A stretch of DNA of 59,274 nucleotides, counting the filler, from Dugesia japonica (taxonomy: Eukaryota): assembly GCA_001938525.1 (NCBI GenBank). It is 5 parts of 5 records of this genome, joined end to end, with 100 filler letters (N's around TTAATTAATTAA, not from the genome) between each part and the next. Parts side by side here need not be neighbours in the genome. Positions count along the whole stretch, not along the records: positions 33,778 to 50,846 come from MQRL01607261.1; 4 more parts are not named here. One strand, written 5' to 3'. Below the pieces are notes generated by a model that saw only the letters and a list, made by a program, of their open reading frames with translations, made no database searches and had not been told where the DNA came from. The first letter of the stretch is position 1, and the number at the start of each line of letters is the position of its first letter. Made by a program: the position numbers and the translations under genes. Shown piece after piece: positions 15,863 to 50,846 of the stretch.

Positions 15863-16706
15863 TAGTTAATGATTTTTTTAGATAAGTTGATCTTAATGCT
15901 GCTTATACCATTGTTAGTAATGCTACTATAAAACCGCCTTCATTCATTCCTAACTTTTCTCATCAATTTCCTACTTTTTGTAATTACAAGGGTTAATAAC
16001 AATATTTATAATAATTTCAAGTAAATCATCAATAACAAAGGTTGGAATAAATTTTGAGTAATGAATTAATGAGATGAGATTAATTAAATTAATTATAATT
16101 AAATATTTTATGTTATGTAATTGTATGTTTGTGTGTGTACATAAAAAACTGATGTATTGGACTGTTTGATGATATATTTCGAAGTAACTGGTGGTTTCAA
16201 GATAACGGATATTTGAATGATAAAAGAGATTTTTGGAATCGACAAGACAGATTAAAGAAAATGAATGCCATAAATTCAGATCCAGATCCTATGGCAGATC
16301 CTATGAATATTCAGTATATTTTTCGACTTAATTCAAAGACATTCAAGTTTGCCATATTTTCGGATTTCTTGATAGAAATTTATTTTATTTTTTATANNNN
16401 NNNNNNNNNNNNNATTTTTTCAAGACAAGAATTGTTAGTAGCACATTTTATTACTCAACATTCAATTCATTGCATTACTGTAATTTATGAAAAACAGAAA
16501 ATCTAGAAATTTTAGTATTTAACATAATTTGTGTTAAAAAATCAAAAATTTTATTTTAATTCTGTATAAGTAAAGGTAATTGTCAAATAGAAATTTGAAT
16601 AAAATTCATTGTTTAAAGATAAAAGAAAAACGATAATTATAATTATTAAATGTTATTCTTAATTTTCAAATTTAAATTTGAATTGTTAATATTATTAGTA
16701 AATATA

Positions 16707-17279
16707 ATGCTGCAAGCAATCAAAGTTTTTAAAAGATTCAACGTAAAAGAAATCAGGAAATTTTCAAAATTTCAAGCTAAAATTGTCAGTAATTTTTATC
16801 CTGAAGTACAGAAACATTTCAATGAAATTAAGAAATCTCCAGCACCTTACAAAATAATAGGAGGATTATCAGTAATACCATTTATTCTACCAGTATTCCA
16901 AAATTTCATTTCTTTAACATCGAATCCTTTAATATTATCAAGTCAAACTTTATATGCAGCTTGTGTTTTAGCCTACTTTGGAGGATATAAAGGTGGGTTT
17001 GATAACCAAAGTAATAAAATTACAAATATGACAGTAGTATCCTCAGTTATACCCGTTTTATTTGCTTGGTTCTGTATTTCACAGGGACCAACAATTAGTT
17101 CAATTTTAATAATGTGTGGTCTCGCAGGATTACATTATTCAGATGTAAACATGAATTATCAAGATTGGTACATTTCATTACGTTTTGGAATAATTTATAT
17201 TGGAATTTTATCAATGATTTTGAGTTTACTTTTTAGTTTAATTTTCCCAATACCAAAAAAAACAAGTTGTAATATGTAA
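16707..17279 (+). CDS. TMEM69: Transmembrane protein 69 (DUF3429 family), intronless
   Basis: SPAP...GGLSVIPF, Q..YAACVLAYFGG, SVIP.LFAW, WY..LRF motifs; basic mitochondrial-targeting-like N-terminus from the Met at 16707. Confidence 0.75.
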   Translation: MLQAIKVFKRFNVKEIRKFSKFQAKIVSNFYPEVQKHFNEIKKSPAPYKIIGGLSVIPFILPVFQNFISLTSNPLILSSQTLYAACVLAYFGGYKGGFDNQSNKITNMTVVSSVIPVLFAWFCISQGPTISSILIMCGLAGLHYSDVNMNYQDWYISLRFGIIYIGILSMILSLLFSLIFPIPKKTSCNM

Positions 17280-17967: not shown

Positions 17968-20055
17968 TAAAAATTAAAGATAGGTAGGTAAACACGAGAA
18001 TACGATACTCAACATATAAATATAAAATTTATTCCAAAAATTTTGTAATTTTGACTTAGATTAAGTTATTAACAATTATAAAATTTAATATGAATTCAAT
18101 GATTGACTTGTGAGGTGTATGCAGTAGATAGATACATGTTGTCTAAATAAACTGAGGGTTTTCAGCCCTGAAATTTGAGAACTTTGGCACATATATCTGC
18201 TCAGAAAATAGTGAGAAGTTAACTACAGATCAATTTTGTGACCTTCAAATATTATTATTGGTGCTCCCGATCCTCAGTCAGACTAATGCAAGAAAATACA
18301 ATTATCAAACAATACTTAATCAAAAATACAGTATTTCGAATATAAGTTAATATACAGGATGAAAATGAAATATTATCTCAAAATCCCGTAAAACCGGAAG
18401 TTCTGGGAAAGTACAGTGTTTCCGATGTAATCAATACTAGTCAGTAAATTTGTATAAACAGTTCTTAAACAATCGATAAAGAAATTACTCCAAAAGAAAG
18501 AAATATAAAATTACCCAATAACACATCTCAATTATACAACTTTTTTATGTAAGTTCATTGAAAAATGAAATGAAAATTATGCATTTTATGTGTATTTCAA
18601 TTTAAATATAAAAATCAAGAAGGAATGCCGTGTGTAAATTATTTTGAATGTGGGTTTATGGATTGAATTAATTAATTTTTATAAAACAGACATAGATTAG
18701 ACATAGTGTCCTATATGGTCGATGAGGAAACGGAAGTGTAATTGCATGTGCGACTTACCGATATTGTCCGTGAAACTAAAATCGATGTGTATATCAGCGT
18801 ATCTTAATAAATATAATTGTCGTGTTAAATTTAATTTGATTGAAATTTGATAAATATTCAACAATCACCACAGCGAATTAAGTTTCTTTTAACAATTAAA
18901 TGATAATTAAACTGATCTAATACGAAATTACAGCTAGTTGTGTATGAGAGCAAGATGGTTAATTTGAAGTTCCTTTATCATAAAAATCTATTTTACTATA
19001 TTAAATGAACTAAATAGATGATTAGAATTTGTTTCACGTTTAGAATCACATCAAATATAGTGAAGTTAAACCGTCCATCCAGAGAGGAACTTCTAACAGA
19101 ACAGATGACCAGTCGAGCATAAATAAAAAAGTTAAGTAGGGAGTGTAAGGAGCAAAGGGACGAAAACGTCGCATGGAGAAAAATGAAATCGGGTTTACAA
19201 GAAAGAGTGAGTGTGAGTCGAAAGAGATAACTCACTCATCAGCAACAACCGCATGATGGCGGAAATTATAAAGACCTACACTGATCGAGAAGCCGCCGTA
19301 TTGGAAAATGTGCGCATTATCAAGAAGGAATACAATGGAATTAAAAATGGAAATCAGGAATGCGTGAACACAGAGGAGACAATATTCAGAATACCCTAAT
19401 ACTTGGGTGTTAATAAATGTGATCGTTGTAATTGAATTTAATTCTTACGTGAGAGAACAGGCTATTTAGTTTCGGTCATCAGTCAAAAATTTGGTTCTTA
19501 TGTTAGTAACTTTTAAAAATCATATGTAATGAGATATAATTAACAAATCAGTAATTTTACGAAATATTACCGCCCACACAGCTGTTTAGTTGGTCATATT
19601 GTCATAGTAAATGTAATAAATATTTAAATAGTTATTTCTAACCTTCCTTTAGAAAAGCAGCTATCATACAGACGTATAATTTTTATCATTTTAATAGTTT
19701 AGGAAAATGAATAAATTTTCCATTATGTAGCTGTTATTAATTTAGATAGATTATTAAATTTAAAATTCAAAGAGACGGGAATATTTTCCAATTGTATAAA
19801 AGCACATTCTACAAGAATTGTGGAATCAAAGTCCAAATTCGAAAAGGAATTCTACAAATTAATAAATAATGTGCTTCATAGCAAGACCGTTAAGAATTTG
19901 AAGAAGCGAAAAAATCTCTGAGTCGAAATTTGTTACTTACATCAGCAAAATTATATTCAAATTATATTATAGTTGAATACCATAATTGATTTAGTATTTT
20001 AACGTTTAAATTCTGAAATGTTAATGAGCGTCATCGATAACTTCTGCACATACAT

Positions 20056-33677: not shown

Positions 33678-33777
33678 NNNNNNNNNNNNNNNNNNNNNNN
33701 NNNNNNNNNNNNNNNNNNNNNTTAATTAATTAANNNNNNNNNNNNNNNNNNNNNNNNNNNNNNNNNNNNNNNNNNNN
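33678..33777. other. Artificial assembly spacer truncating the Polinton
   Basis: Same 100-nt structure. Confidence 0.95.
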
Positions 33778-33818
33778 AATGTTAGATGATTTATTTTAAA
33801 TGGGTCCCTTTGGGTAAT

Positions 33819-34814
33819 TTATTTTGATTCAAAGTATATTTTAATTTTACTTAAGTTCTTTTCAATTTTTCTAAATGACCAATCTGATTTTAAAACATCT
33901 AAATATTTTCTTGCAAACTGATGAAATCTAATTATTTTATTTATATAATTAATTTTTATGTTTATACCAATTTTATGTAAATGATTTTCCACATCATTAT
34001 TACACTTTAAATTTTTTTTCAATACTTTAAAATAATAACCTAAATAATAATAACTTATTAAAGTAATTCGTTTTCCAATATTAACATTGTTATACCAATA
34101 TTTAATATTATCGTTTAAAGTTACTAAATTTATCTGTAGGTTATTTTCATTTTCTGGAGCTGTTATTACATTTTCTAAATTAAATGTATTAGGAAGAGTT
34201 ATTTCATTATTAATTGATTTTATAAATTCTTTAATTAATTCATCTTCTTCAATATTTTCTTGGATATTTTTATTTCCCAAAGGCACGCGTGCCTTCGAAA
34301 TTATTTCAGTTTTATTTTCAACATTTTCATCTTCTTCAATATTTTCTTGCCGGATATTTTCTTCAACAATTTCTTCTTCTTAAACATTTTCATTTTCTTC
34401 AATATTTTGTACGTAGTCCAGCTCAGCACCTTCTTGCTGGATATTTTCTTCAACATTTTCTTCTTCNNNNNNNNNTTCTTCTTCTTCTATAAATTTTACA
34501 CCTTTAACTTTTTTAACTTTTTGTACGTAGTCCAGCTTAGCGCCTTTAACTTTTACTTCTTCAATTTCTTCTTCAATATTTTCTTCTTCTTCTATAAATT
34601 TTACACCTCTAGCTTTTACATTTTCTTCTTCTATAAATTTTGCACCTCTAGCTTTTTGTACGTAGATAGATACATCATTCCAATATTCTGGTTTTAAATT
34701 ATTTAATCCATTCCATTTACTTGTTAATGGTGAAGATTGTAAAAATATATTAATTTTATATGCACATTGTTTACAACACAATTCACAAATTTCTTTTCTA
34801 AGTTTTTCGTTCAT
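33819..34814 (-). pseudogene. Polinton protein with acidic EEENIEE repeats and a basic helical C-terminal domain (in-frame stop at 34380-34382)
   Basis: Track ORFs 34380-34814 and 33819-34286 are in frame; reading through TAA gives ...ENENV*EEEIVEENIRQENIEEDENVENKTEIISKARVPLGNK... (~330 aa). Confidence 0.75.
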
Positions 34815-34899
34815 CCTTTCTATTTCTTAAATAAAAATTATAATCTTAAGTTGGTAGCATGCTACCAGGTTTCAGATTCCAAGTTTTGACTTTTTTGTG

Positions 34900-35490
34900 T
34901 CATTGTATTCCTAGCTTCGCGCGCATTTCATTTATAACTTTAGTTTGATTTTCAACCAATAATTTTAAATTATCATCTTTAGTTTTTTTATGACCAGAAA
35001 TTAATTCATGAACATCACTAACCCTTTTCTTAGAAATCATTAATTCTTCATCAGTTAAGATTTCATCATTTACTGCTTTCTGTTGAAATAAGAATAATTT
35101 ATTTTTAACACATTCAAGTTTAATTATTAACTTTTCATACTTTTCTTTTCTAGATTTTATTAATGAAGTATTTAATGTTCCAATTACAGGTAAAACGGAA
35201 ATTGCGCCAGTTATAATTGGTATTCCGATTGTTGTAAGCGCAATTCCAACTGGAGTAATTAATACAATTCCGGTGATTCCAATTCCAGCACTAATAAATA
35301 TTTGTGCATATTTTATTCCTGAATCTATTCTATTCCATCTTCTATGTATTTTCTTATAATGTTTAATTTTATCTTTAATATAATAAAGATCATTCTCAAA
35401 ATCTTTAATTCTTGACATTACAAGTTTATTTTTTAAATCTAGGATCGTATAATCTTCATGTAAGCTAGGATATAATTTTTCCGTGTCCAT
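34900..35490 (-). CDS. Polinton/adintovirus two-TM membrane protein (resembles the family labelled 'gasderminX' in adintoviruses)
   Basis: N-terminal LYPSL, basic helix, Gly-rich hydrophobic hairpin (ISAGIGITGIVLITPVGIALTTIGIPIITGAISVLPVIG), then KEKYEKL...KAVNDEILTDEE matching the KKH..I...KAL.D..IS.EEF pattern as I recall it. Confidence 0.65.
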   Translation of the reverse strand: MDTEKLYPSLHEDYTILDLKNKLVMSRIKDFENDLYYIKDKIKHYKKIHRRWNRIDSGIKYAQIFISAGIGITGIVLITPVGIALTTIGIPIITGAISVLPVIGTLNTSLIKSRKEKYEKLIIKLECVKNKLFLFQQKAVNDEILTDEELMISKKRVSDVHELISGHKKTKDDNLKLLVENQTKVINEMRAKLGIQ

Positions 35491-35506
35491 TTCTTAAGTA
35501 AAAACT

Positions 35507-38279
35507 TTAATCTCCTGAAATTCTAATAGTACCAATGTAAATTCCTTTATGTAAAGTTAATTCTATAAAGTTTTTTAAATTTTCATAATAATACAAGTGA
35601 ATGTTAATCTTTTTTGTTCCCATATAATCCACAATAATCTTCCCATTATGTTCATATATAGTATTATTTAATTTAATGGAATATTTAAAATTTCCAGTTT
35701 TATATTGATTACCATAAACTTCAATTAATAAATGTTTTATAGGTGAAATTAGCTTTATAGAAACAACAAATGATTCTTCAAGATAAAACTGTGTATCATT
35801 TTTTATTACATCTTTTCTTTTAAAATCTATTCTTTCTACTTTTTCATTAATACAATAATAAGGAACACTTTTTTTATTATCATGTACACTTAAAGCAAAT
35901 ATATATCTAGTAACATGCTCACAATTAAGTGGAAGGAAATTGTCAAATATTTCTTTTATACTTTTTATTGTTAACTCTTCTCCATTTTCAATATATTCTT
36001 TCATCAATAGATCAATTCTTTTAATTTGAACATTATGAAGTTCTGGTTTTATTCTTTTATATTCTTTAATTATTTTATATGAAATTTTNTATGTAATAAT
36101 TTTAATATTTAAATNCATTAAATAAATTCCTTTTGGTAAAATTATTTGTATAAAATTTATATTATTATCTTTTAAAATTTCAGTGTTTTCTCTATAAATG
36201 CTAACAAGATTATCATTAGGTTTAAAATAAAAATATGTTGATGTAATATTATTAATTTTATTGATATAAGTAAATTTTGTAACTTCACAAAAACCATCTA
36301 TACTTATACCAACTTTACTATTTAATTTNNNNNNNNNNNNNNNNNNNNNNNNNNNNNNNNNNNNNNNNNNNNNNNNNNNNNNNNNNNNNNNNNNNNNNNN
36401 NNNNNNNNNNNNNNNNNNNNNNNNNNNNNNNNNNNNNNNNNNNNNNNNNNNNNNNNNNNNNNNNNNNNNNNNNNNNNNNNNNNNNNNNNNNNNNNNNNNN
36501 NNNNNTAGGTGTATTTGAATATGGTAAGTAATTATCAATTAAATGTTTTATATTTTTAGTGTCATATGTTTTAGATAAATTATTAAATTTATTAACAAAC
36601 ATTTTATGGAGGTATGGTTTTATTATTTCAAATTCTTTAGTTAAATCTTCATAAATTTTAAAAGTACTCAATTTAATAACTACGCTCTTTAATTTAAATT
36701 CATTTACAAAAATTATTTCAATGTAATTTATTTTTGTTTCTTTATTAATTTCAGTGCTTTCACGATAAATTTTAACATTTCTATCTTCAGGTGTAACATG
36801 ATCCATTACTAATGCCATATTATTAATTTTAATGGTGTAAAGAAATTTTACAATATCACATTTATCCTCAATATATATACAAACTTTTTCTTTAATATCT
36901 GTATGTAAAACAATAGAATTTTTTGTAAATTTAAAATTAGTTACATGATCACTAATATGAGATTGATTGTTGTTAAATGTTAATATTGTATTGTTATTTG
37001 GTAAAAAAACATAAGGTTTGTAATTATCAAAAATTTCTCTTAAAGCTTTGAAATTATAAGTTTTAAATAAAACATTAATTTTATCAATATCTATTTTATG
37101 AAATTTTTTCATTTCATATTCTTTAGTTAATTTCTTTAACATTTCTAATTTATAAAAATTAATAGATAATTCAAGTAAATAAACATCTGGTAAAGTTATT
37201 GAAATATAATTAATAATGGTTTCACTGCTTTCATAATAAATTTCAAAATCATTATCATCATCTTTAAGTACATGATAAAAAAATGATTGTGAAATATTAT
37301 TAATTTTAATGTTATAAGTAAATGATACATGTGTATGTTTACCTTCCATATTTATAATAATTTTTTCATTAATGTTTTTTGTGTATAAAATAATAGATTT
37401 TATGAAATCTTTAGTTCTTTTAAAATCAAAATTATAAAAATATTTTTGGTTTAAACCATATTTAAGAATTGTATGACCATAAAGGAAAAATATAACGTTT
37501 TCAACACGACTAGCATAAGAAAAGTAATTATCAATCATTTCTCTTAATTTTGTAAGTGTTGAATTTGAAAGTGTTTCTTTATATTTTTTAAATAAAACAT
37601 AAATTCTATCACTATATATTTTATGTTGTTTTTCATTTACTATTTTAATTTTTTTAGTTAATTTTAAAATTATAGGTTTAAATTTTCCTATATAGATTTT
37701 AAGATTAACAATAGAAGTTATTTGGTTGTCAAATGTTTTCTTATCTAAATCAGCATCTAAAATATTAATTGTTCTTTTTATTATCTCAATTTCTTTTTTA
37801 AATTTTTCACACAAATCTCCATCATTAACTATTATTTTTAATTTAATAATTAAATCACTTCTTTTAAATGGAAAAAGTTCTGCTTTAAATCTTTTGATAT
37901 CATAATCTATTTTATCAAATGTTTCTTTTTTACAATTTTTATTATTTATACTTTTCACATCAACATTTAACATTTTTAATTCATCAGCTTTAGATTGTAA
38001 ATTTAATTTGTTAGATGTAAAATTATCAATCTTTAATAATTTTGAGAATATTAATTCATGTTTCTGTATTTTATCTTCAAGTTGTTTTATATATTTTAAA
38101 TTAACAGCACCTGATAGATCTATGGGATCTTCTGTTATTTTTAAAGATGATATTTTATCACCTGTTTCATTTACAAATTTATTTTCATTTTGTGCATCTG
38201 AAATTTTAAGTTTAGCATCAACAGTTTTTAATATTTGTGTAGTATCTCCAGCATTAACACTTGTTCCAAAATTATTCAT
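35507..38279 (-). CDS. ~920-aa putative fibre/attachment protein with four tandem ~165-190-aa repeats
   Basis: Two track ORFs joined across the N gap 36329-36504. N-terminal FVNETGD...DPIDLSGAVNLKY resembles fibre/trimeric-adhesin neck motifs; repeats begin at ~37625, 37100, 36608 and 36037. Confidence 0.6.
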
Positions 38280-38703
38280 TCTGCGCTATTTCTTTATATA
38301 AATTTTTCATCTCTAAAATTATCTCAGTGAACTCGCTTGGGTCAAGTTTATATAAAAAATAAATACATAAGATTCCACATATTTCAGTACCAAAATGTTG
38401 AACTTGAATTTTATTATATTTCTTTAACCCAGAGGGAACCGTGACTTTTTCAATTTCTTCTAAAGGTTTTAAACCAAAAGATTCAAAATAATAACCTTTG
38501 GTATAACATGTCCAATGTGTTCCTTTTTGATTTGAATTTTGATAATTAAACATATAATTCATGTTTAAGTCTAATATGTTAGGTGTCTCATTTTTCATAT
38601 AAATCTCTAATGGTATTTCTAAAAAGTTTGCAATTGAATATAAATCAAAATTTGTAGTTGTGTTGATTCCAAATGTTTTTAAGAAATCTAATAATGAATA
38701 CAT
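38272..38703 (-). CDS. Adenain-like cysteine maturation protease
   Basis: GTHWTC (catalytic His), YFESFG (acidic residue), QVQ...ICGILC (Gln and catalytic Cys). Overlaps the next gene start by 8 nt. Confidence 0.9.
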   Translation of the reverse strand: MYSLLDFLKTFGINTTTNFDLYSIANFLEIPLEIYMKNETPNILDLNMNYMFNYQNSNQKGTHWTCYTKGYYFESFGLKPLEEIEKVTVPSGLKKYNKIQVQHFGTEICGILCIYFLYKLDPSEFTEIILEMKNLYKEIAQNE

Positions 38704-38716
38704 CTTTATCTCTTTC

Positions 38717-39379
38717 TTAAAGTCGATATTTACGTAAATGAACTAAAATTGTAATTGTTTCTTTATTAAAATCTATTGTGTTAAAATTTTCATCCATAAT
38801 NNNNNNNNNNNNNNNNNNNNNNNNNNNNNNNNNNNNNNNNNNNNNNNNNNNNNNNNNNNNNCTTTCTACTATTTTATATCCAAAAGGAACTGTATTAATT
38901 GGAAATGAATATAAAAGATTAATATTTTTAGTTTCGCCATTAGATTTTACATAATTACCTTTAACAATATTACAAGTTATATTTATCGCATTAATATTTG
39001 AAATATTAACTTTATTATCTAAATAATAATTTCCTGGTTCATAAGTTTTTGGTTTAAAACCTAAAATTGTATGAAAGAAAGATTTATTATCAAAAGTTAA
39101 AACNTTTTTTAATTTAATGTTACATTTTGAAGTTGCTGTATCTGGTATAATTTCTATTCCATGTTTTTCTAAACGAATTGAAATTTATTTTACTTCATAT
39201 GCTCCAGGTTCTAAACTTGTTGTGTTAAATTTATTATTATTATTGGTAACATTAAAAATAATATTGTAACATGAAAAATATAATAATCCAAGTTCATACT
39301 CTGAATCTAATTTTATAGGATAATTTAAATTTATTTTTAAATCTTCTTCTGTTCCAACCACTAAGAATTGATGCGACAT
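38717..39379 (-). pseudogene. Minor capsid protein (penton), in-frame stop at 39185-39187
   Basis: Manual read-through: ...YPIKLDSEYELGLLYFSCYNIIFNVT...EPGAYEVK*ISIRL...ILGF...NISNINAINITCNIVKGNY...LLYSFPINTVPFGYKIVE-[gap]-IMDENFNTIDFNKETITILVHLRKYRL*, the typical Polinton/adintovirus penton pattern. Confidence 0.85.
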
Positions 39380-40400
39380 TTATTTATTATAATATTTAGA
39401 TTTATATTTTTTATAAATCTTGTTAGATATTAAACCATGAGTTTTTAATTTTTTACAAACGCTCTTAATTTCTTCATTAAGATTATTATGTCCAGATTTT
39501 GCTGCAGAAATTAATAATGTTTACTTTTCAAATAATCCTATCGGCCCAGAGGGACCCATTTTCACTCCTTTACCTACCAATTTTTCCAAACTTTTTTGTC
39601 TACCTCTTTGTTTTTGGTTTTTTATTTTTCTTAAAAAATTACAATATTCATCATCTTCAGTTGCTTTTACCAATTTTAAATACATTTCAATATAATTTTT
39701 TGTTTGTTGATCTGGCTTTATACTTTCTTTATTTCCTAAAATTATATTTGTTAAAATATCACTAAATGCATGAGTTTCACCACCAATATTAAAATAAGCA
39801 AAATTTCCCCTTTTATATAAAAATATCTCATTATCATTTTCAGGAAATTTTAATGTTAAGAATTTTTTATCAGCTTCTCCTTTTAAACCAACATTTGTAT
39901 AAAACATTTGTGGTGTTGTTAAATATGTTAATGCATTTTCTTTAATTTTAAAATCTTCATTAAAAACAATTGGTTTTATATCATCTTTCCTTAATATTTC
40001 AAATTTTTTATCTGTGCTTTCTTCTTCTTCTTTTATTATTAGTTCTTCTTTATCTTTTATTATTGCTTTATCTTTTATTATTGGTTCTTTTATCATTAAT
40101 TGTTTTGGTATTTGTGCGGTGATTTTTGGTTCTAATACAAGTTTTTCTAATGCATTTATTGTTGGTTGTTGTAAAACTGATAAGTTACTTTGTAAATTTT
40201 TATAATCAAGANNNNNNNNNNNNNNNNNNNNNNNNNNNNNNNNNNNNNNNNNNNNNNNNNNTTATTGTTGGTTGTTGTAAAACTGATAAGTTACTTTGTA
40301 AATTTTTATAATCAAGAACTTTACTACAAAAAAAAATATTATATTTTTCTTGAGCTTTAATTAAATCTTTTAATACTTTAATTCTTTCATTAACTTCCAT
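39380..40400 (-). pseudogene. Conserved uncharacterised Polinton protein (DP..L..RL.LL.AS..AGN...NEI family), in-frame stop at 39521-39523
   Basis: Read-through gives GKGVKMGPSGPIGLFEK*TLLISAAKSGHNNLNEEIKSVCKKLKTHGLISNKIYKKYKSKYYNK*; the stop abuts the penton ATG. The 5' part spans an overlap-type assembly gap at 40212-40261. Confidence 0.75.
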
Positions 40401-40416
40401 TTCTTATAAAAATATT

Positions 40417-40929
40417 TTAGCTTTCATCTTCTGTTTCATATTCTGTTTCTTCATCAACATTTCCTCCTTTATGTGGATTATATGGATTTAAATATAANNN
40501 NNNNNNNNNNNNNNNNNNNNNNNNNNNNNNNNNNNNNNNNNNNNNNNNNNNNNNNNNNNNNNNNNNNNNNNNNNNAAAATATTTATGAATTGCAGAACCT
40601 TGATATGAATTTAAATATAAACCAGATCCTTCAGTTTTTGTTTCAGTTTTAGGTTTATCAAGTAATTCGATCTCTTTTTGAACTTTAATTGCATTTCTAG
40701 AATTAGTAACTGTATTTGCAATTCCACTTGCTATTCCAGCAGTTCCAGCTAACGCACCAATAATTGCTGGGATAGCAGCTAAAAATGCAAAACAACCCTC
40801 TTTAGATTTCTTCTTAACTTCATCTTTTACTTTTTTACTGATATAATAATTTTTACCATTAATTTTTACAGTTTTACATTTTTTAGAATTTAGTATTCTT
40901 TCTAATTCTTCTTCTGTTGGATTACTCAT
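40417..40929 (-). CDS. pX/pVI-like virion core or membrane-lytic precursor
   Basis: Basic N-terminus, KEG(C)FAFLAAIPAIIGALAGTAGIASGIANTV hydrophobic/amphipathic segment after a GG|F-like adenain site, and repeated GSGLYLNSY / LYLNPY motifs. No PLA2 domain visible. Confidence 0.65.
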   Translation of the reverse strand: MSNPTEEELERILNSKKCKTVKINGKNYYISKKVKDEVKKKSKEGCFAFLAAIPAIIGALAGTAGIASGIANTVTNSRNAIKVQKEIELLDKPKTETKTEGSGLYLNSYQGSAIHKYFXXXXXXXXXXXXXXXXXXXXXXXXXXLYLNPYNPHKGGNVDEETEYETEDES

Positions 40930-40953
40930 TTCTTATAATAAAAATATTGAGTG

Positions 40954-43900
40954 TCAACGAATAAAGAGTGAAACGAGTGCTAAACATTTTAATGTTTTAT
41001 TTATTAAATCTAATCTTAAATGCCAATCTTCACATTTTTCATATGTATATTGATTTCCATGTGACCATGTTCTAGTTCCATTATCTTCTATAATTGTTTT
41101 ATCACTATATCCTGTTAAAGCAATCTTTTTTTGTTTGGTTAATTCAATTTCATGTAATTCAGATTTTAATGAATAGTTTGTTCCATAAATTATTTGTTTA
41201 GGATCATTTAAAACAGAATCACATTCTTTCATTCCAATTTTATTAAAAGATTGTACACCTTTATGTTTTTTACTAAATTTAATATTTCCTCTTTCTTCTA
41301 TACCCAGAGGGACCCATTCATAAGCATTAGATTTTGGTTTTATAAAATCACATTTAAGTATTTCAGAATTAGGCATTTCATCTTTCATCTGAAATAAATC
41401 ATTTCCAGTTAATCTATTTAATTTTTCTAAATTATCTTTTCCAATTATCTCAACAAATACGGAATCGGTATCGCTGAAGTGTATTTTATAATTATTTTGA
41501 CCGACTTCTGGTTCTAATTGATTATATACAAAATTGTACATTACCTCTTTTGCATATTCAAGAATTGTAAATCCTAAATATGGAAATTTATTATATTTTA
41601 AATTAGTTTTTATCATATGAACTACAGCTATTGTTTCAATAGTTTCATTATCTAATTTAAAACTTTTAGTACTTAAATAAGTTGGTTTAGATGTATACTT
41701 TTGAAAATCTTTATCAGTTCCTACAATATGTATGTTACATCTATTTCTTATATTTTCAAGTGTTTTACCATAAAATGAATTATTTATATCTTTAAAGAAA
41801 GTTACACCAAATTCATCATTATTTCTTTTTGCTATATTTCTTTCATCAATATTAAAAAGTATGTAATCTCTTAACCATGGAATTGTTGGCATTTTATATT
41901 TAGTATGAATCTTTTTTAATTTCATTCCTAGTTTTAAATAGAGATCTAAAGTTGATCCAAGTATAATATATTTTTCTTAATCAAGTTGATTCATTGTTAA
42001 TTTAATATTTTTATTTGATAATTTTTTATTAAATGATTTTTGATAATTACTTAACATATCATCTGTAATAAGAATTCTATCAGGTGCTAATGGAAAATAT
42101 TTTGTTCTATCATGAATTTCTGGTGGATAATCTAAGTCAACTTCATAAAGATAATTCATTGTATCAGTTGCTGTTTCATATCCCAACTCCTCACACTCAA
42201 TAAATTCACCTGTTAGTAATGGTTTTGTCATACAACTTGCATATAAAGAATTTGTATCTAAATATTTTATGTAGGTGTCATCAAAATAATAATTTGGAAT
42301 ATTTTTTCCTTCACGTAATAATTTTGCTATTTCTTCTGATTGTGCTTTATTTATTTTTCTGTATGGGTCTGAAGAATTATGACTGAAAACTTGACGATCA
42401 CCTTCTTCTCCAGAATATCCACCTCTAACTCCACGTTCAAATTTTAGGAAAGTATCATAAGTTTCTTGTTTNNNNNNNNNNNNNNNNNNNNNNNNNNNNN
42501 NNNNNNNNNNNNNNNNNNNNNNNNNNNNNNNNNNNNNNNNNNAACTTGGATCTATTTTATAAAATTCTAAACAAATCTTTCTAAAATTTTCTACATAATC
42601 TGAAAGAATTAATACATCTAATTTCATATAGTGTAACATGTAATCCCAAAGATTATTAAAATTATTATCATTTAAGAATTCTTGATAATCATTATCAGAT
42701 ATTCCTTTTTGTTTTAATATATTAAAGAATTCTTCTTTTGTTGGTATTTGATCTGATTTTAATAATTGTATAACTTCTTTGACATTATTTGCTTTAACAT
42801 AATCATATGGAAAATGAGCTTTTTTAGGTCTTAAGTTAAATGAATTTAATATTTCATGATTTTTTGATTTAGTTAATGTTTCACCCATTTTCTCAACTGA
42901 TGTTTTACATATTTTAAAAGAATCTAGAAATCTAATATTTTTATATTGAAATGTGATATATTGATCATCAGAATGTGGAATTATTTTCTTTATTTCATTT
43001 GGATGTTTTGTTAAAAGTTGTTTAAAGAATAAATGATTGTCATAACCCATTGCATTATGAAAATAACATGGAATAAATAAGTTTCTTTTACTTTTATCTT
43101 GAAGATTACATTCAGAATGTGTATAACCTCGAAATTCTCCATTAAAATGATTATGATCTAAAACTGGATTTTCTGTTATTTGTTTTTCACAATAATAACA
43201 TTTTTGATTTCGTTTAAATGCTGGACATATTCCTGTATATTCTTTTATTAACTTTTTGAAAATAACATCTTTAAATTTTTTATTAATATCTTCAAGAAAC
43301 TTTATAAAATCATTAACCACATTTTCTCCTAAAAATTCATAATATTTACTTGGTATTAAATCTGGATAATCTGATTTTAAATATATTCCTAAACTTATTG
43401 GTTCTTGAATATTATTTTCTTTTGTGTAACATTCAAAATCAGCATACATTACAAATGGTATTTTATTTTTAAAATAATTATTTTTAAATTCAAAGTATTC
43501 CTCTATAGGAAATATTACTTTTGCTGTTTTATGATGAATACATTCTTCTTGATGTTTTAATAAAACTTCTTTAGATGAATATTGATTCATACAACCAAGA
43601 CACAAATAATTTCCTGGTTTAACATTAAATAAAGTATGTACATTTCTAACTAATACATAATGATTTTTATAAAGTAACAAATCACATTTATTTTCTTCAG
43701 GATTTGGTTTTATTGAATAATGTGAAATACGAATTGGTGTAATGTTATCATTTAATTCAAAAAGATTTATTTTAAAATTATTTAACTTTTCTAATTTCTT
43801 TATATCTTCAATTGCTGATGGAAATGTCATTCCTTCAGTTTTTAATTCTGGTAAATGTAGAATATAATTTCCTACACGTGTTGCTTGTGGTAAAACATGT

Positions 43901-44721
43901 TTATGTGCAAGAACTGAATATAATAAACATTTATTATCTCTGTTTTTTATATTAATAACTCCATATTTTTCAAATGGTAATTTACAATATGTTGCCCCAA
44001 CTAATGATTGATATTTTTCTAATTCTAATTTAAAATCAATTATGTGATCATAGTTCCAATTAGATTCACATCGATCTATATCTTGAATATATCTTTCTAC
44101 TTCTTCAAACATTTGATTTATCTTTTTTAGGTATTGATGCTTTTGTATAAATTTTTCTATTTATAGTGTAAGAATAAAAATTAGCTATTCTTCCTTCTTT
44201 ACTATATTGACAATTAACTCCCATTTTAAATTTATGACCTNATTTAAAAAACTCTAAACAAATATGTTCTACAAATGGTTTAAGTGGTTCAACCGATCTT
44301 AATTTAAATCTTTCAATATTTCTTGTAATACATAATCTGCTATTTAAAAATACATTAATATCATAATCTGGATATGTTTCTTGATTGAATTTTCTCTAAT
44401 ATGTCTTGGTTTATCTTTTCGATTTTTCATCAATCTAGAAATTAATTTTAAATGAAGTTTACTTTTAAAATTTTCTTCTAATGCTTCTTCATTTGGAAAA
44501 TGTTTATCACAAAATTCACAATATAAATCAACACTACCACATTTAGTTTTTCTCTTGTGTATATTTAAACCAGATTGGGTTTTAAATTTTTTTTCACATA
44601 CTTCACAAATTACCCAATCATTTGGATTTAAAACTACACATGTTTTAGATTGAATATGTGAATTTAATCCTCGTTTATTTTTAAATGGTTTATCACAATT
44701 AGGACATCTTAATGTAGACAT
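40954..44721 (-). pseudogene. Protein-primed family B DNA polymerase polyprotein (3x C2H2 ZnF, OTU-like protease, exonuclease with EndoVII insert, polymerase)
   Basis: Exonuclease motifs YADFE, FHNAMGYDNH, FLDS, YMKLDV; polymerase motifs YLDTNSLY, KDINNSFYGK, SDTDS; EndoVII-like CYYC...DHNHFNGEFRGYTHSECNL; DNKCL...HYVLV. In-frame TAA at 41977-41979 (LD*EKYIILGSTLDLYLKLGMKL). Frameshifts in A-runs near 44390 and 44125 link the ZnF ORF via an open linker (KFNQETYPDYDINVFLNSRLCITRNIERFKLRSVEPLKPFVEHIC...). Confidence 0.92.
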
Positions 44722-45539
44722 TTTTATTTTCTTCCTCTTTTTTTATTATAATAAATTTAATCATATCTCTTAAATTTTTCCTCTTAAATTTTACAAACAT
44801 TTACATGAGGCATTTCACATTTCGTGATTAAAATTTTTGGTTAAAATTTTTACATGTCANNNNNNNNNNNNNNNNNNNNNNNNNNNNNNNNNNNNNNNNN
44901 NNNNNNNNNNNNNNNNNNNNNNNNNNNNNNNNNNNNNNNNNNNNNNNNNNNNNNNNNNNNNNNNNNNNNNNNNNNNNNNNNNNNNNNNNNNNNNNNNNNN
45001 NNNNNNNNNNNNNNNNNNNNNNNNNNNNNNNNNNNNNNNNNNNNNNNNNNNNNNNNNNNNNNNNNNNNNNNNNNNNNNNNNNNNNNNNNNNNNNNNNNNN
45101 NNNNNNNNNNNNNNNNNNNNNNNNNNNNNNNNNNNNNNNNNNNNNNNNNNNNNNNNNNNNNNNNNNNNNNNNNNNNNATTTTCTCATTTCACATTTGACA
45201 CTCAAAATTGACACCAAAATATTTGGACAACAATCCAGTCCTAATTATGGGTGTTATTTATATACTTCTATATTATAACAATCATTAAAAGTTGAAATTT
45301 ACTCGAAAAATCATGAATTTAAAATCAAATGTAAAACTTAAAAATTTAATTAAAATAAATTAAAAGTAACAAATGAAATAAAATTATAAGATGGAAACAT
45401 TTTTTGCCAAAAGTTCTTTAGACAATGTATAAGTAGTTTNNNNNNNNNNNNNNNNNNNNNNNNNNNNNNNNNNNNNNNNNNNNNNNNNNNNNNNNNNNNN
45501 NNNNNNNNNNNNNNAAAGGGGTTTAGTACAACACACTCT

Positions 45540-46990
45540 TTTCTCAGAGAAACAAGCATATTTCTATAAAAAACGCTATATACATTTCAATCAGTATATA
45601 ATTCTAAGTTACGGACGCTATTACAGACCGGTTAATCCCAGAGAGTTTTGGAAGAAATATAGAAATAGAAAAGAATTGCTGAGGTTTATTATTTTTGCAT
45701 ACACGTTAAACATTATTTGTAACGCAAAAATTTTGTTTTGAGGACAGATCATTAAGCTATTACATTTGAATACAAAGACCAATCACTGCACAGTTTCAAA
45801 CGTGTATAAACTTTTAAGTAGTTTAGACACAACTTTGGAATATCGTAAAGTTGTCTTGCATAGTAATGCTGATATGTTGATTATGCTAAATTGTTAGTCG
45901 TGTATTTAATGTCAACTGATTCATTCAGATGCAAAGAAGGAAAAATTAAAAACGAAGAGTTTGAATTTATTTGAGAGAGATGATATTAGTAATGAAACAA
46001 GAAAGAGTGAAGTATTGAATGTCAATAGAAAAATTTGGCTTTTGAAAGAGATGATAGAGAAAAAGATTAGAGAAATATACTATCAGCTGTGTCTCGCGGG
46101 AGTAGAGAAAACTTTGTATTATTAAAGAAGGAATTATGTGAGAAATGGCTTGGGGTAGAGAACAAAAAAGGTTGTTCGGAGTTTTTTGTTTTTGCAGAAA
46201 GTAAAGGCTAACACAGTGTCTACGCGTGGATCAACAAAATGGTCAGATAGTTATAGTCGTATGGAAGTTATGTTTATTAATATTTGCGGGCCATTAAAAA
46301 ACCAAAAGTAGGAAGAAATAGATTTTAGAAATTATAGACCAATGTACTAAATATGTTATTTTGGTAGAATTGACTAGACAAAATGAAGGAACCTTTAAAA
46401 AAGCCATTTGGAGAAATTGAATTTTAATATATAGGTGTCCCCGAAAAATTCTCACAATTTGTGGCAAAGGTTTTGAATCTCGGGAGATGATAGATTTTTC
46501 GAGTACATTCAATATTGTGTGGAAGATTGCAAGTTCAAATCCTCACAAAACGAAAGGTCAGATTAAACGGAAATTCAGAGCAGTTCGGGATTTCTCGAAT
46601 GCAGCTATACAGGAAAGAAGAACATCGATCCTACAGATATATTATTAGAAATGAAGTTTGCTCTGAATGCAACAACAACAGATATCAGTCCTATGGAAAT
46701 GGTTTTGGCACGGCAGATCTGTAGGGAAAGTTGGGCAGGAGAAAAAGAGCTGATAGAAACGAGATATAATGTAAGAGAAGAAAGCACTTGTAAAACTAGG
46801 AGACACTTTCAAATAGGATATGAACTTTAGTGGAGGTATAAACATGACAGAAACGGCAGGAGAGATTTGAAGGGCCATATAAGATTACACAAAAAATTCA
46901 CGATAGATGTTATGGTATGTTGAGAGAATATGGTAAAAGATTAATTCGCTGTGGAAAAAATTTAAACATTCTTAAAAAGGGGACGTGAGG
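45540..46990 (+). mobile_element. Decayed Ty3/gypsy LTR retrotransposon pol 3' region (RNase H-integrase) with polypurine tract
   Basis: KELL..Y...HVKHYL...FVLRTDH.AI, QFQTCINFLSSLD..LEYRK...HSNADML, FINICGPL, IIDQCTKY, CPRKILTICGKGFES remnants; aaaaagggga PPT-like tract at ~46974-46983. Confidence 0.8.
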
Positions 46991-47599
46991 ATTCGTAGTT
47001 AATTATATTATTTTAATTTTTAATAAATTGTATTTGTATTTGTATTTGTATTTATAATTAGATTTAAATTGGTATAAGTTAAAAGACTTGATTTTTCCAT
47101 AAGTATTTAATAAAACAAAAACTATTTTTTAATAAGGAATTATTTTAACAAATAATATCATTTAATATTAACAAATTTAAATCTTAATATCATTTTATAA
47201 ATGATATATAACTGCTNNNTCTCTCTCTTTAATTTTGATTTTCAATTTTCTTTAGCCATTCAAGTCTTCTGGGTTCAAGCTGTCTTAATTTATACAAATG
47301 CAAGTGCAATGAAAAATTTGGCAACTGCACTATTAACTAAATATACTCGGTAAAGAATTCCATTCTTCTAGTATGTATTTTCAGTTCAATCTTCTACTGA
47401 TTTATTCTCAGTAGAAATTTTACATATCTTTATTTCTAATTTAGTTCTTCAAAGTTTTTTCTCCATAGAAAACTATGTAAAACGCTATATTCAGTCGACT
47501 AAATAAATGTAGATCTAGTCTAAACTAGACGATCTCATCAAGAATATACCGCCCTTAAACAAGTGCCGCCCCCAACACACCCATAGATACACCACTGAT

Positions 47600-48000
47600 T
47601 CAAAGATAAATGCTTTGATATAATTTGTTTTGGGTACCCGTTATTTAAGAATTTATTTTTTATGAACTTGAGAGAGATCAATTCCATTTCTTCATTTAAA
47701 GATAGTCTCTCAACTCGAATTCTTTCACCTTTAATTATACTAATTTTCTGGCTGATAGTAGTATTACTACTCCATGGCAATATATGTCCACTGTGAAATG
47801 GTTTCATATATAATTGGTTAGTTAATATTTCACCAGGTTTTTTTGGATCAAAGTGTCCAGAAAAGGAATCTGAAAGTCAATCTATTTTTCTAAAGTGAAT
47901 TTAGTATTATCATTTATACTTTTGGCTAATTCTAAAATATTCTCTAATGGAGAATTAGTTACAAAGTAAATATCATTTATATATCCAAACCATTATGGGG
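47600..48000 (-). mobile_element. Penelope-like reverse transcriptase C-terminal fragment
   Basis: WFGYINDIYF (degenerate YVDD), KFTLEK, IPFLDTLI, YMKPFHSGHILPWSS...K...IKGERIR...NNGYPK. Confidence 0.75.
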
Positions 48001-48992
48001 TATCAAGAAATGAATACTGAAATGGAATTGATTAAAGGTTGAAAGAACTATTTATTATTACTTTATCAACTTCCCATTAAAAATCAGTGGACTTTTATTT
48101 TACTAAATGGAAAATACAGCGAAGTAATAATCAAATTAAATATGTTTACGAGAATAATTATTGGACTTAACTATTGATTGCATTTGAGATTTCATTAAAT
48201 TAAAAGTTTCTATCAAAAATGTTTTTAATTTCTTGATAGTATTTAACAAATTAAATTTTTTTGATAAAACAAACATGAGACCAAACAACAATAATTTCTT
48301 ATTAATTTTCATAAATTCAGATATTTTAATTATAAATATTNNNNNNNNNNNNNNNNNNNNNNNNNNNCTTTTTGAGGTTTAATTTTCATTGATTTCAGCA
48401 TAATTAATTATTAATAAAACTCATCGTTGTTTAAGATTCATTATATAAATTCTTTTTACTGAGTTTATCTCATTAATCACGTTTAAATATAACTGAAAAG
48501 AATAGTGCATGAATTAATGTAGAAAAAACATTCCAGCTACGAATAAATTAGGGAATATAACAATTTATGAGGCAACTAAACCCAGCTGTAGTTAAAGATG
48601 GATCACACAGGGGATGCGATCACCTCCAACCATAGTAGAATTTTCACATTTGTGAAAATATTACTCTTTTGCCAAAAACTATATAACATGGAACGGCTAA
48701 CCACATGAATATAAATTAAAATTTCGTGTAATGCATATATTCCAATTTCCTACCAAAATCAAAATATTGTTTCACTTTTTAATTATTTCTCTCTTGAAAA
48801 ATTAATAGATCCATCGCTGCCTGTAGTTAGATTTAAATCAGTTTGTATTTTTTAAAATAAAATCTTTACTAATACCAAATTAGAAAGAAAACAATTTATT
48901 AAAAACAATTATAAATCATACTACAAAAGCTTCAAAATGTCAAAACAATAAAAGCGTTCATATAAAAAATTCGAAAAAACATTTTAGTAAAT

Positions 48993-50513
48993 TTATAGAA
49001 GCTCTGAACTACCTACAGGGGGTGCTGAAGGATCATTTGAAAATTTCAATGCAAATCCTTTATTTTTCAATGGTATTTTCATAAAACTTTCACTATTAGA
49101 TGGACTTTGAATATTTCTATTATTTTTTTGTTTTACTCGATTTCGTAAATCAATTTGATGATAACCTTCAGTTGAATAAATTTCAAACAATCGACAAACA
49201 ATACTACTAGTTGTTAAATCACCGACATTCATTGATAACATTCGAATAATAAAATTTCCATCTTGTCTTAAAAATTCCACAACGAATCTATCTATTTTTC
49301 GTTTGGTAAATGAATCGAATACACCGAAAATATCATTCATTTTTAAACATAATTTTACAATTTGTTTCTGAGATTTTCTACAAATAATACGATATATCCA
49401 TAATGGTAAACTTAATATCGTTAGGAATAGAACAATGCTGAAAAAAAAGTATAAAAATATATATATTTTTTCATTGAGCATATTTATTGGAAGAAGACAT
49501 TGAGCAACTGCGTTATTGATATTTCCCATTTGCTCTAAAGCATTTCGACACATACCAACTCTTGGAAAAACTTGAGTTTCTGTCCATTCTTTACCATCAA
49601 GAATATCTTTTAAAATTCGATGCCCGAATAGTGTATAACCTTCTTTTCTGTCTAATCTCAGAAAATAAAACATGAGATACAGTTGAAGAAATCCAATAAC
49701 GATATACATGATTTTCANGAGAAAATAAAATGTCACCAATAAATTTCCATTTCTTTTTCCTGGAATATGTCTAGAGATTCGATTCTTAATTGTTTCGGTA
49801 ACGGTTTTGATTTTCCTATGTCCAAATAACATTATTTCAATATTTCTTGAAATATGCTCAATAATTTTTTTTCTAGTTTCTTCGTCTTGACTATTGGCAT
49901 CATTAGCATCTTTTATCAATTGTTCAAGGTCCATTCCAACTCTATTGTAAGTTATTATTTGCCAGAACAATCTTGGTAAATAATACAAAATAGCTTGTAA
50001 TCCCAAAACAAACGGAATCCATTGATAATAATCTATAATGAATTGACATGTAAAATACAATAATAAATTGCTAATATAAAAATATATTAAATAATAATCA
50101 ATAAATTTATTAATCAATACATATGATATTAATGATAATTAATTACCAAAAAATAAACAAACACAAAATATTTTATTTTGATTGTGTGAGATGAACTTAC
50201 TCATTGTATCTTTCTGAAGAATTTTCCAGTCTTCTAATTTATGAGGAACTTTAGTCGATAAATTCATTGGAACTGTGCCTTCCACCCAACACATATTAGT
50301 TATATAATCTTCTGCATTGCTACCACCCGGTATTGTCGAAATATAGCATATAATTGGGTTCATAAAATACTGTCTCATAGANACTATTACAACACATATC
50401 ATTAGTACAATAATATTTCCTTGAAAATTAGCACGATCTGAAAAATCTTCCAAACCAGAGTATTGGACAACAGAAAATCCATTGATATAAGAAAGAAATT
50501 CAGTAGCCACCAT
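48993..50513 (-). CDS. inx: Innexin (gap-junction protein), 2 coding exons, ~450 aa
   Basis: Exons 50201-50513 and 48993-50032 (GT-AG intron) give ...DTMNYYQWIPFVL. Motifs EDFSDR, QYF..PI.C, YITNMCW, YYQW.P, FPRVGMC, QCLLPINMLNEKIYIFL, FLRQDG.F. Confidence 0.95.
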
Positions 50514-50846
50514 TTTCTAAAATACAAACAATATTAAATAAATCTGTATTAATTCAATGTTGATTATGTAATTTTAACCTTGAATTTCACAAGAAAAGGT
50601 CAATATCAACGAATTTTATTTAACAATATATCAATGACGTAATAGCATTTTAATTTAATTTTAATCCGTTATAATTTAAATACCAAAATAAAAACGTAAA
50701 TTATTTAAATATAAACATTTACCTTCAAAGTTGAAATCGGAAAACTAAATAAAATGTCAGGATTTGTTCAAATTTTAACCTCTGTCGCCTAATAAATGCA
50801 TGACTCATGTTCTAAATACATAACTAATTTCCAACCAATGATTCAT

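Follow-up and report, generated by a model that had tools for sequence, protein, structure and literature searches.

On the minus strand of the window (the whole 59,274-nucleotide stretch of DNA analysed), 98.6% of positions 33819-44721 is taken up by eight genes, all intronless and in one orientation (Table 1), in agreement with the first-pass annotation, and the tight packing it had described was read directly in the sequence as a TAAATG stop/start junction at 39382-39377 and an 8-nt overlap between the protease stop and the start of the fibre-like gene (38272-38279). Eleven stop-to-stop frames of at least 140 aa were found on this strand of the element, some of them lengthened by N runs (eleven such runs lie within 33778-44859), against a mean of 0.005 frames in 200 base shuffles, the longest shuffled frame being 171 aa. 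The GC content of the element is host-like (15-25%), and the motif TAAG precedes five of the eight gene starts. The element is bounded on one side by the contig end, 41 nt beyond the acidic-repeat gene, and on the other by a 318-N gap that probably holds its end, and these bounds bear on the search for TIRs and target-site duplications. No inverted repeat surrounding the element was found among the 25 longest in the window, neither the window nor the listed read pieces showed a TIR, a target-site duplication or a read across a junction, and none of the 24 read pieces listed out of 96,773 bridged the gap. The "spacer" at 33678-33777 is an assembly join and not biology; the same 100-nt block, N44-TTAATTAATTAA-N44, occurs in four copies in the window (15625, 23966, 33678 and 50847).

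Table 1. Features of the element and its surroundings, in window positions
Feature	Position	Strand	Details
Artificial contig join	33678..33777	.	N44, six-frame stop linker, N44; cuts element off
Unnamed-product gene with acidic repeats (last ORF)	33819..34814	-	in-frame stop 34380-34382
Two-helix membrane protein, open frame	34900..35490	-	typical of Polinton-type elements
Fibre-like gene across N177 gap	35507..38279	-	4-5 tandem units, about 160-190 aa each
Adenain-type maturation protease (predicted), open frame	38272..38703	-	His63/Glu74/Gln102/Cys109
Putative penton (minor capsid protein) gene	38717..39379	-	in-frame stop 39185-39187
Conserved core gene	39380..40400	-	in-frame stop 39521-39523
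Small protein, hydrophobic pX-like segment	40417..40929	-	candidate core/membrane-lytic protein
pPolB, C-terminal piece (Pol B, Pol C motifs)	40954..41976	-	profile E 2e-55
pPolB, first large piece	41977..44160	-	vOTU-like Cys/His, Exo I-III, EndoVII insert, Pol A motif; closes at in-frame stop 41977-41979
96-codon piece, other frame, overlapping both neighbours	44105..44395	-	putative broken terminal-protein region
ORF with three C2H2 zinc fingers	44344..44721	-	Pfam zf-C2H2_jaz E 1.7e-14, 3 stretches
Scaffold gap, 318 N	44860..45177	.	between element and flank
Flank, near single-copy, decayed transposon-like scraps	45515..47020	.	contig depth 9-20, 0-2 differences, X1, X2
Host innexin, introns, single copy, transcribed	48993..50516	-	Pfam Innexin E 1.6e-45, 1.2e-10

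[quoted passage not shown] Its first large piece aligns with 18 relatives that are 23-30% identical (best E 1e-62), matches the related-polymerase profile at E 8e-129 and carries invariant C62, H151, D225/E227, D358, D499 and D619, while 369 ORFs from related loci yielded 22 matches to its C-terminal piece (best E 6e-32); identity to the retrieved relatives is 34% at most. C62 and H151, which lie ahead of the exonuclease and are invariant in 12 rows, suggest by motif and position a vOTU domain of the kind reported for these polymerases (PMC11161782), and an Endonuclease_7 insert lies at about 43102-43212 (E 2.7e-4, just below the Pfam cut-off). The 5' region is spread over three frames that overlap at 44347-44395 and 44108-44160, and the main ORF begins at position 213 of the 1275-position profile, so that about 210 positions are missing upstream. 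The 96-codon piece gave no direct match in protein or profile searches. The zinc-finger ORF probably belongs to the polymerase gene as its 5' piece, and is possibly a separate small gene; it did not match the profile built from 38 related polymerases, and its link to the polymerase was therefore drawn from position and frame overlap. Against PDB the polymerase profile returned zinc fingers only, and PHROG matches on the element were confined to EndoVII and zinc fingers. Phage records gave no match to the element, and single-protein pattern scans found close relatives in none of 7 viral-contig and none of 70 metagenome candidate stretches.

The protease was also firmly identified, from its profile and conserved residues, as a predicted adenain/Ulp1-type enzyme: seven relatives were found among the 369 ORFs, H63, Q102 and C109 are invariant across six rows, and the profile matched the adenovirus protease 1avp at E 1.1e-8 (the single sequence gave nothing meaningful against PDB). 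The putative penton gene matched the gene found after the A32 ATPase in each of two complete Polinton-type contigs from IMG/VR, L003 and L015 (phmmer E 1.3e-13 and 2.6e-12), and this gene position, together with established Polinton gene content, points to a single-jelly-roll penton; its profile found no match in PDB. The C-terminal piece of the core gene, which we take to be the one named PZ, matched L003:6331-7227 at its end (pairwise E 6.5e-5, phmmer E 0.018), and an N50 gap inside this gene has a 56-bp exact duplication on its two sides, which is probably a contig overlap left unmerged. A Pfam search gave no direct support for the small pX-like protein, which weakly resembles L003:5092-5703 (pairwise E 0.008), itself a match to Adeno_PX at E 0.007; no Cupiennin-like ORF was recognised in the element, a GasderminX/Cupiennin check returning only this weak pX-like match at 40417-40929. 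The membrane protein matched L003:5719-6249 and L015:4916-5614 (phmmer E 3e-8 and 1e-6) and 132 representatives at E <=0.001 (best 41-47%), with SLATT_4 as a lead only (0.83), whilst Pfam and PHROG searches found no match for the acidic-repeat gene.

L003 and L015 thus share a homologous polymerase, penton, protease, membrane gene and core-gene end with the window element, and also carry a fibre-like gene directly after the protease, but they are only 25-34% identical to the window genes and their gene order is shuffled (ATPase-penton-pX-membrane-core-capsid-polymerase-protease-fibre). An rve match is present in L003, and both contigs have Pox_A32 and DJR-like matches. With its polymerase, protease, penton and membrane-gene matches, the earlier reading of a Polinton/Maverick (adintovirus-like) element with a virion-morphogenesis module stands.

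The fibre-like gene is the sole gene of the element without a known relative: there was no Atlas match, no homologue among 8000 scored candidates and no sequence match to the post-protease genes of L003 and L015. Its units are mutually 28-39% identical (E down to 1e-17), in a frame open for 591 codons, and each is predicted to combine helices with a jelly-roll-like beta sandwich. In the one-unit model 57 beta-part residues had pLDDT >70, and the whole 591-aa piece folded poorly (pLDDT 31). The best Z in structure comparison of the unit was 6.6, a score shared by turret, knob and carbohydrate-binding domains, and in Foldseek one repeat drew a single viral match, of poor quality (TM 0.20), and none in PDB at E 0.001. 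Kinship with toxin or haemagglutinin beta sandwiches was considered and set aside, the rows being weak and read as a common fold only. In read pieces from other copies, joints skip 483-1010 nt of the fibre gene, and the repeat number seems to vary between copies. As for the motif ahead of the genes, TAAG is the late promoter of baculo-type viruses. Judged by title, none of the papers listed in our literature search dealt with a TAAG late promoter in Polintons, and passages of PMC3671162, PMC13215967, PMC11131425, PMC6431247 and PMC11296320 held nothing that decides promoters or group labels.

In-frame stops interrupt the polymerase, penton, core gene and last ORF (Table 1). These broken genes were absent from the first-pass annotation. 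It had placed the integrase, ATPase and major capsid beyond the spacer, a placement that was not supported: the spacer is an artificial join, and 11 related-element proteins searched against the window for these three genes found nothing better than E 0.11. They are simply missing from the contig. With polymerase, penton and core broken and integrase, ATPase and capsid off the contig, this copy cannot act alone.

The family's depth exceeds that of the adjacent single-copy innexin by hundreds- to thousand-fold in three DNA data sets. Summed contig depth in X1, which does not equal copy number, was 12,000-34,000 over the polymerase and 40,000-61,000 over penton and protease, against 22-33 over the innexin; X2 showed a similar pattern and X8 (organism B) the same pattern at lower depth, in a comparison covering the element beyond position 36115. 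The polymerase stretch was partly present in 13 of the 24 runs listed, from six studies, with only 0.40 of the sampled words in the best run; the assembled copy may therefore be a mosaic, and assembly may have introduced some of the breaks. RNA-seq mapping, proposed earlier as a check, found the element almost silent in one poly(A)-selected run, of which about a quarter was read: depth was at most 1.3 per direction, against 12-31, in one direction only, over the innexin. The latter matched only C. elegans-type innexin-6 in PDB, a homologue search with another host protein found nothing, and the flank holds an integrase-like trace (E 0.11).

A possible, though unlikely, reading of these data is that several family copies were collapsed into one mosaic contig and misscaffolded beside the innexin, in which case the family would be endogenous but the exact locus and some of the breaks unreal. 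The eleven N runs, the 56-bp duplication at one gap, the 318-N gap before the flank, the low word share of the best run and the very high depth of the family all favour a mosaic. Against it, a 168-nt piece identical to the window was found in X2 at that run's single-copy depth (10.6), near-identical single-copy contigs of the flank and innexin are present in both X1 and X2, and one 12-mer is found on both sides of the 318-N gap.

The class of the polymerase was also considered. PF03175-type polymerases are assigned to Alpha/group 2 and divergent ones to group 1 (PMC8502044). The window polymerase had no match to PF03175 at E up to 1, with the model present in the library, and lacking this Alpha/group 2 mark it better fits Beta/group 1, to which by sequence it looks to belong; 10 of the 11 relatives scanned likewise had no match. 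The claim that a pPolB with an EndoVII/HNH insert is the group-2 type was accordingly not upheld. An Alpha/group-2 polymerase, or the HNH-bearing pPolB2 class, is in our view improbable: the window polymerase does bear an HNH/EndoVII-type insert, the nematode and oomycete pPolB2 Polintons assigned to group 2 (PMC10748475) carry an HNH-type nuclease insert, and one relative matched PF03175 (E 1.7e-16), but pPolB2 counted 0 across 73 flatworm genomes (PMC10748475) and the insert was present in 9 of the 11 relatives, making it a common trait of this polymerase type. In a FastTree tree with unnamed rows, the window polymerase lay on a long unresolved branch, with L003 among the nearest rows.

We regard it as highly unlikely that the element is a virus replicating freely, or a contaminant, that was sequenced along with the animal. 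Its viral gene packing, lack of introns and very high depth, with no junction seen among the listed pieces, would suit such an origin, but its core genes carry four nonsense breaks, RNA is nearly absent, and the depth profile is alike in 2015 and 2025 runs from different studies and under a second organism label. Moreover, the read pieces are mostly 90-95% alike (a figure for the whole stretch that includes an unrelated repeat) and not one clonal sequence. The integrated origin proposed earlier is supported, in that the stops and frame changes, the very deep diverged DNA family and the host-like GC make the element most likely endogenous. Least credible of all is a domesticated cassette in which the open protease, membrane and fibre frames (591 codons in the last) serve the host, as RNA depth over the fibre and protease bins is 0-0.7 in both directions and chance alone is expected to leave open frames in a young decaying copy.

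Taken together, the element is very probably an integrated copy, both decayed and incomplete, from a high-copy Polinton/Maverick family (class Polintoviricetes) with a Beta-adintovirus-type polymerase in an AT-rich animal, most likely a planarian. By analogy with known elements, active ancestors would have copied a linear genome by protein priming, the vOTU domain freeing the terminal protein, and inserted it by an RVE integrase; the A32 ATPase would have packed DNA into a double-jelly-roll capsid with pentons at its vertices, which the adenain protease would have matured. At those vertices the repeat protein may have built a segmented fibre, its tandem knob or lectin-like domains serving attachment. 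Schmidtea Polintons are PIWI-silenced, and PIWI/piRNA silencing may by analogy extend to this family (PMC8532177).

The closest described systems are the Beta adintoviruses or group 1 Polintons (PMC8502044, PMC12451622), of the family Adintoviridae, since renamed Eupolintoviridae (order Amphintovirales). These share a vOTU polymerase missing PF03175, adenain, penton, a pX-like small protein, tight co-oriented packing and degraded endogenous copies, but have the integrase, ATPase, hexon and terminal repeats that are not on our contig; the fibre of tandem helix-plus-jelly-roll units sets the window element apart. The maps listed in the available portions of these sources include no flatworm example. 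In planarians, four Schmidtea mediterranea Polintons (Polinton1_SM, -1_SM, 2_SM and -2_SM; 11.6-15.9 kb, with penton and ATPase, capsid in three and protease in two) were tabulated in 2014 (PMC4028283, Table S1), a DNA/Maverick expansion is described in Dugesia (10.64898/2025.12.11.693146), and 748 integrase-linked pPolB genes, of the pPolB1 class in group 2, are reported in 8 of 73 flatworm genomes (PMC10748475). The Schmidtea and Dugesia elements come from planarians, as the window element most likely does, and it may belong to one of those families. The host lineage can thus hardly be called poorly sampled, as had been suggested, although the published census, with its group-2 queries, may have missed this family.

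The element itself is a dead copy of a known class already catalogued in planarians, and as such matters little. What is unusual is a polymerase whose identity to the retrieved ones does not exceed 34%, a repeat-built fibre and TAAG before most gene starts. We give little credence to a bolder reading, namely a planarian-specific, deep Beta-type Polinton lineage of hundreds to thousands of copies with a segmented vertex fibre of variable domain number and TAAG before most genes. If true, the fibre would be a tunable host-binding organ, which we did not find described for Polintons in the literature, and TAAG would imply that these genes are transcribed by a large flatworm DNA virus acting as helper. 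For animal Polintons, the fibre repeats and the pre-start motif offer testable handles on attachment to cells and on the source of transcription. The abundant repeats of the host seem to include this family, which therefore bears on planarian genome growth.

On the minus strand, 98.6% of the stretch from 44721 to 33819 is covered by eight co-oriented genes without introns, as the first-pass annotation had described, and the sequence does contain the TAAATG junction and 8-nt overlap that it reported. Eleven frames of at least 140 amino acids were found in the element, against a mean of 0.005 in 200 base shuffles. The array is nevertheless broken, a point absent from that annotation: in-frame stops are present in the polymerase, the penton, the core gene and the last ORF, the 5′ region of the polymerase is split across three overlapping frames, and eleven runs of N lie inside the element. 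This copy is real but dead and partial, and belongs to an abundant Polinton family.

Coordinates of features in and around the element
Feature	Position	Strand	Remark
Second polymerase scrap	19715-19918	+	another contig
DUF3429-matching ORF	16650-17279	+	intronless, host-type
Artificial join	33678-33777		100 nt
Fibre-like gene	35507-38279	-
Core gene	39380-40400	-
pX-like gene	40417-40929	-
Polymerase query	41980-44112	-	large polymerase piece
[AT]TAAG site	34823-34837	-	pre-start
[AT]TAAG site	35490-35504	-	pre-start
[AT]TAAG site	38703-38725	-	pre-start
[AT]TAAG site	40400-40412	-	pre-start
[AT]TAAG site	40929-40944	-	pre-start
N gap	44860-45177		318 N
Short repeat	45280-45439		between two gaps
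Broken frames	46000-47000	+	34.5% GC
Deep repeat	47432-48415
112-codon frame	47541-47876
Innexin gene	48993-50516	-	host, with introns

The large polymerase piece retrieved 18 relatives at 23-30% identity among 3,237 candidates. In a 12-row alignment the vOTU-like Cys and His, the Exo I-III and the Pol A residues were all invariant, and a TP-vOTU-exonuclease-palm layout has been described for Polintons (PMC11161782). Because the main frame starts at position 213 of the 1,275-position profile, the zinc-finger ORF and the 96-codon piece that follows would form the polymerase N-terminus; neither matched any related-element protein or polymerase profile. A further scrap of this polymerase type lies on another contig of the window (profile E 4.5e-10).

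The EndoVII-type insert noted earlier was recovered (Endonuclease_7, E 2.7e-4) and occurs in 9 of 11 scanned relatives, but the group-2 assignment that accompanied it is not supported. HNH-bearing pPolB2 has been assigned to group 2, with none in 73 flatworm genomes (PMC10748475). Polymerases of the PF03175 type are termed Alpha and were earlier put in group 2, those that diverge from it being Beta and put in group 1 (PMC8502044). With X placed at its stop, the window polymerase gave no match to PF03175 at E up to 1, and 10 of the 11 relatives likewise went unmatched, the remaining one matching weakly. Because of this, and of the lack of pPolB2 in the flatworms surveyed, Beta/group 1 appears to be the better label. 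In a 39-row FastTree phylogeny the window polymerase sat on a long branch (2.01) with no resolved sister, its best identity being 34%.

Scanning viral contigs with the 12-row alignment yielded 88 candidate stretches, which were reduced to 22 loci with 369 ORFs for comparison. Two of these contigs, L003 and L015, represent Polintons that are nearly complete: each gives Pox_A32 and DJR-like matches, L003 rve as well, and each encodes an ATPase, penton, capsid, polymerase, protease and a pair of fibre-like genes. In L003 an integrase and a PLA2-like gene accompany the EndoVII-type polymerase. The window protease had 7 matches among the 369 ORFs, and a profile built from six proteases hit the adenovirus enzyme at E 1.1e-8. 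The larger penton piece matched the genes located after the ATPase in L003 (E 1e-13) and L015 (E 3e-12), and the membrane gene its counterparts in the same two contigs (E 3e-8 and 1e-6). The core label (pairwise E 6.5e-5) is weak, as is that of the pX-like gene (pairwise E 0.008).

The integrase, ATPase and capsid had been placed beyond the spacer at 33678, which is one of four artificial joins in the window. When the window was searched with eleven proteins of related loci (integrase, ATPase, capsid and PLA2), the best match reached E 0.11; the DNA past this join is therefore not, by sequence comparison, a detectable continuation of the element. The contig may stop short of the missing genes.

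The fibre-like gene, whose start overlaps the protease stop, had no relative among 8000 scored candidates and none in Atlas. L003 and L015 likewise have fibre-like genes after the protease, but these show no sequence match to the window gene. The latter consists of 4-5 units of ~160-190 amino acids, 28-39% identical, including the frame past the N177 gap. One unit was predicted as helices plus a beta sandwich (pLDDT >70 in 57 of 173 residues). Among 48,161 chains its top matches were tied (Z 6.4-6.6, rmsd 2.5-3.1, 76-96 aligned): an archaeal virus turret protein, a carbohydrate-binding module, the Sf6 needle knob and a phage tailspike domain, although a Z below 8 may reflect merely a common arrangement. 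We read the gene, with rather more confidence than doubt, as a putative segmented attachment fibre. Contigs of other copies skip 483 or 1003-1010 nt, or step 492 nt back, within the gene, which equals one or two of the repeat units. In each run a single contig supports a given joint, and its shorter side spans 23-31 letters.

Within 25 nt upstream of the gene starts, [AT]TAAG was found at 5 of 8, against 9 of 244 other ATGs, and TAAGAA directly preceded 3 of 8 starts and none of the 244; the pattern was chosen after being seen. Four of the six window matches to T5-N1-5-TAAGAAA fall at element starts (chance mean 1.65), and before the protease the motif's TAA doubles as the stop codon of the penton gene. 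Related loci carry different pre-start motifs. Because of this and of the post hoc choice, we keep to the plain reading of a family-specific promoter or initiator. The motif resembles the baculovirus late promoter; a literature search returned nothing on such a TAAG for Polintons.

The polymerase stretch was partly present in 13 of 24 listed runs from 6 studies, the best containing 0.40 of its words. Four runs were compared with 36116-50846 at 85% likeness. In DNA run X1, summed contig depth was 12,000-34,000 over the polymerase, 40,000-61,000 over penton and protease, and 22-33 around the innexin gene; X2, from a different study ten years later, was similar, and X8 (organism B) had the same profile at lower depth. 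Summed depth is not a copy number, so only an order of magnitude is taken from it: diverged copies numbering from hundreds to the low thousands. Depth was ~10x lower over the zinc-finger end, part of the core gene and the fibre gene (there about one tenth of that on protease and penton, which fits a gene that changes fast), a pattern that variable regions would be expected to show. In about a quarter of the poly(A)-selected RNA run X15, depth over the element bins did not exceed 1.3 in either direction, both being represented, against 12-31 in one direction for innexin.

The host, an animal with ~23% GC and introns in its innexin gene, is probably a planarian. The flank and innexin gave near-identical single-copy contigs. 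A 168-nt fibre-gene piece matched the window exactly and had single-copy depth. Among the 24 pieces listed, out of 96,773, none bridged the 318-N gap, so integration at the site next to innexin is what we infer. No TIR around the element was among the 25 longest inverted repeats listed in the window. The short repeat beside the element, with a depth >50,000 at one place, could be its terminus or another repeat. The broken frames beyond it, with a faint integrase trace (E 0.11), are probably a decayed LTR element. The deep repeat far exceeds the Polinton (X1 summed depth to 296,000) and appears in RNA in both directions; its 112-codon frame, with no Pfam match, looks like the final part of a Penelope-type reverse transcriptase. 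Elsewhere, the DUF3429-matching ORF (E 2e-17) had no homologues at E 1e-10 among 113 candidates.

Four Schmidtea Polintons are listed (Table S1, PMC4028283), 748 integrase-linked pPolB1 genes are counted in 8 of 73 flatworm genomes (PMC10748475), and DNA/Maverick expansion in a Dugesia genome (10.64898/2025.12.11.693146), such insertions in flatworms (survey preprint 10.1101/2025.04.19.649669) and silencing of Polintons by PIWI in Schmidtea (PMC8532177) are described; the family name Adintoviridae is now Eupolintoviridae (PMC12451622). The element family extends an established kind, one whose presence in this host group had already been described, and its divergent polymerase, repeat-built fibre and TAAG motif are worth a second look.
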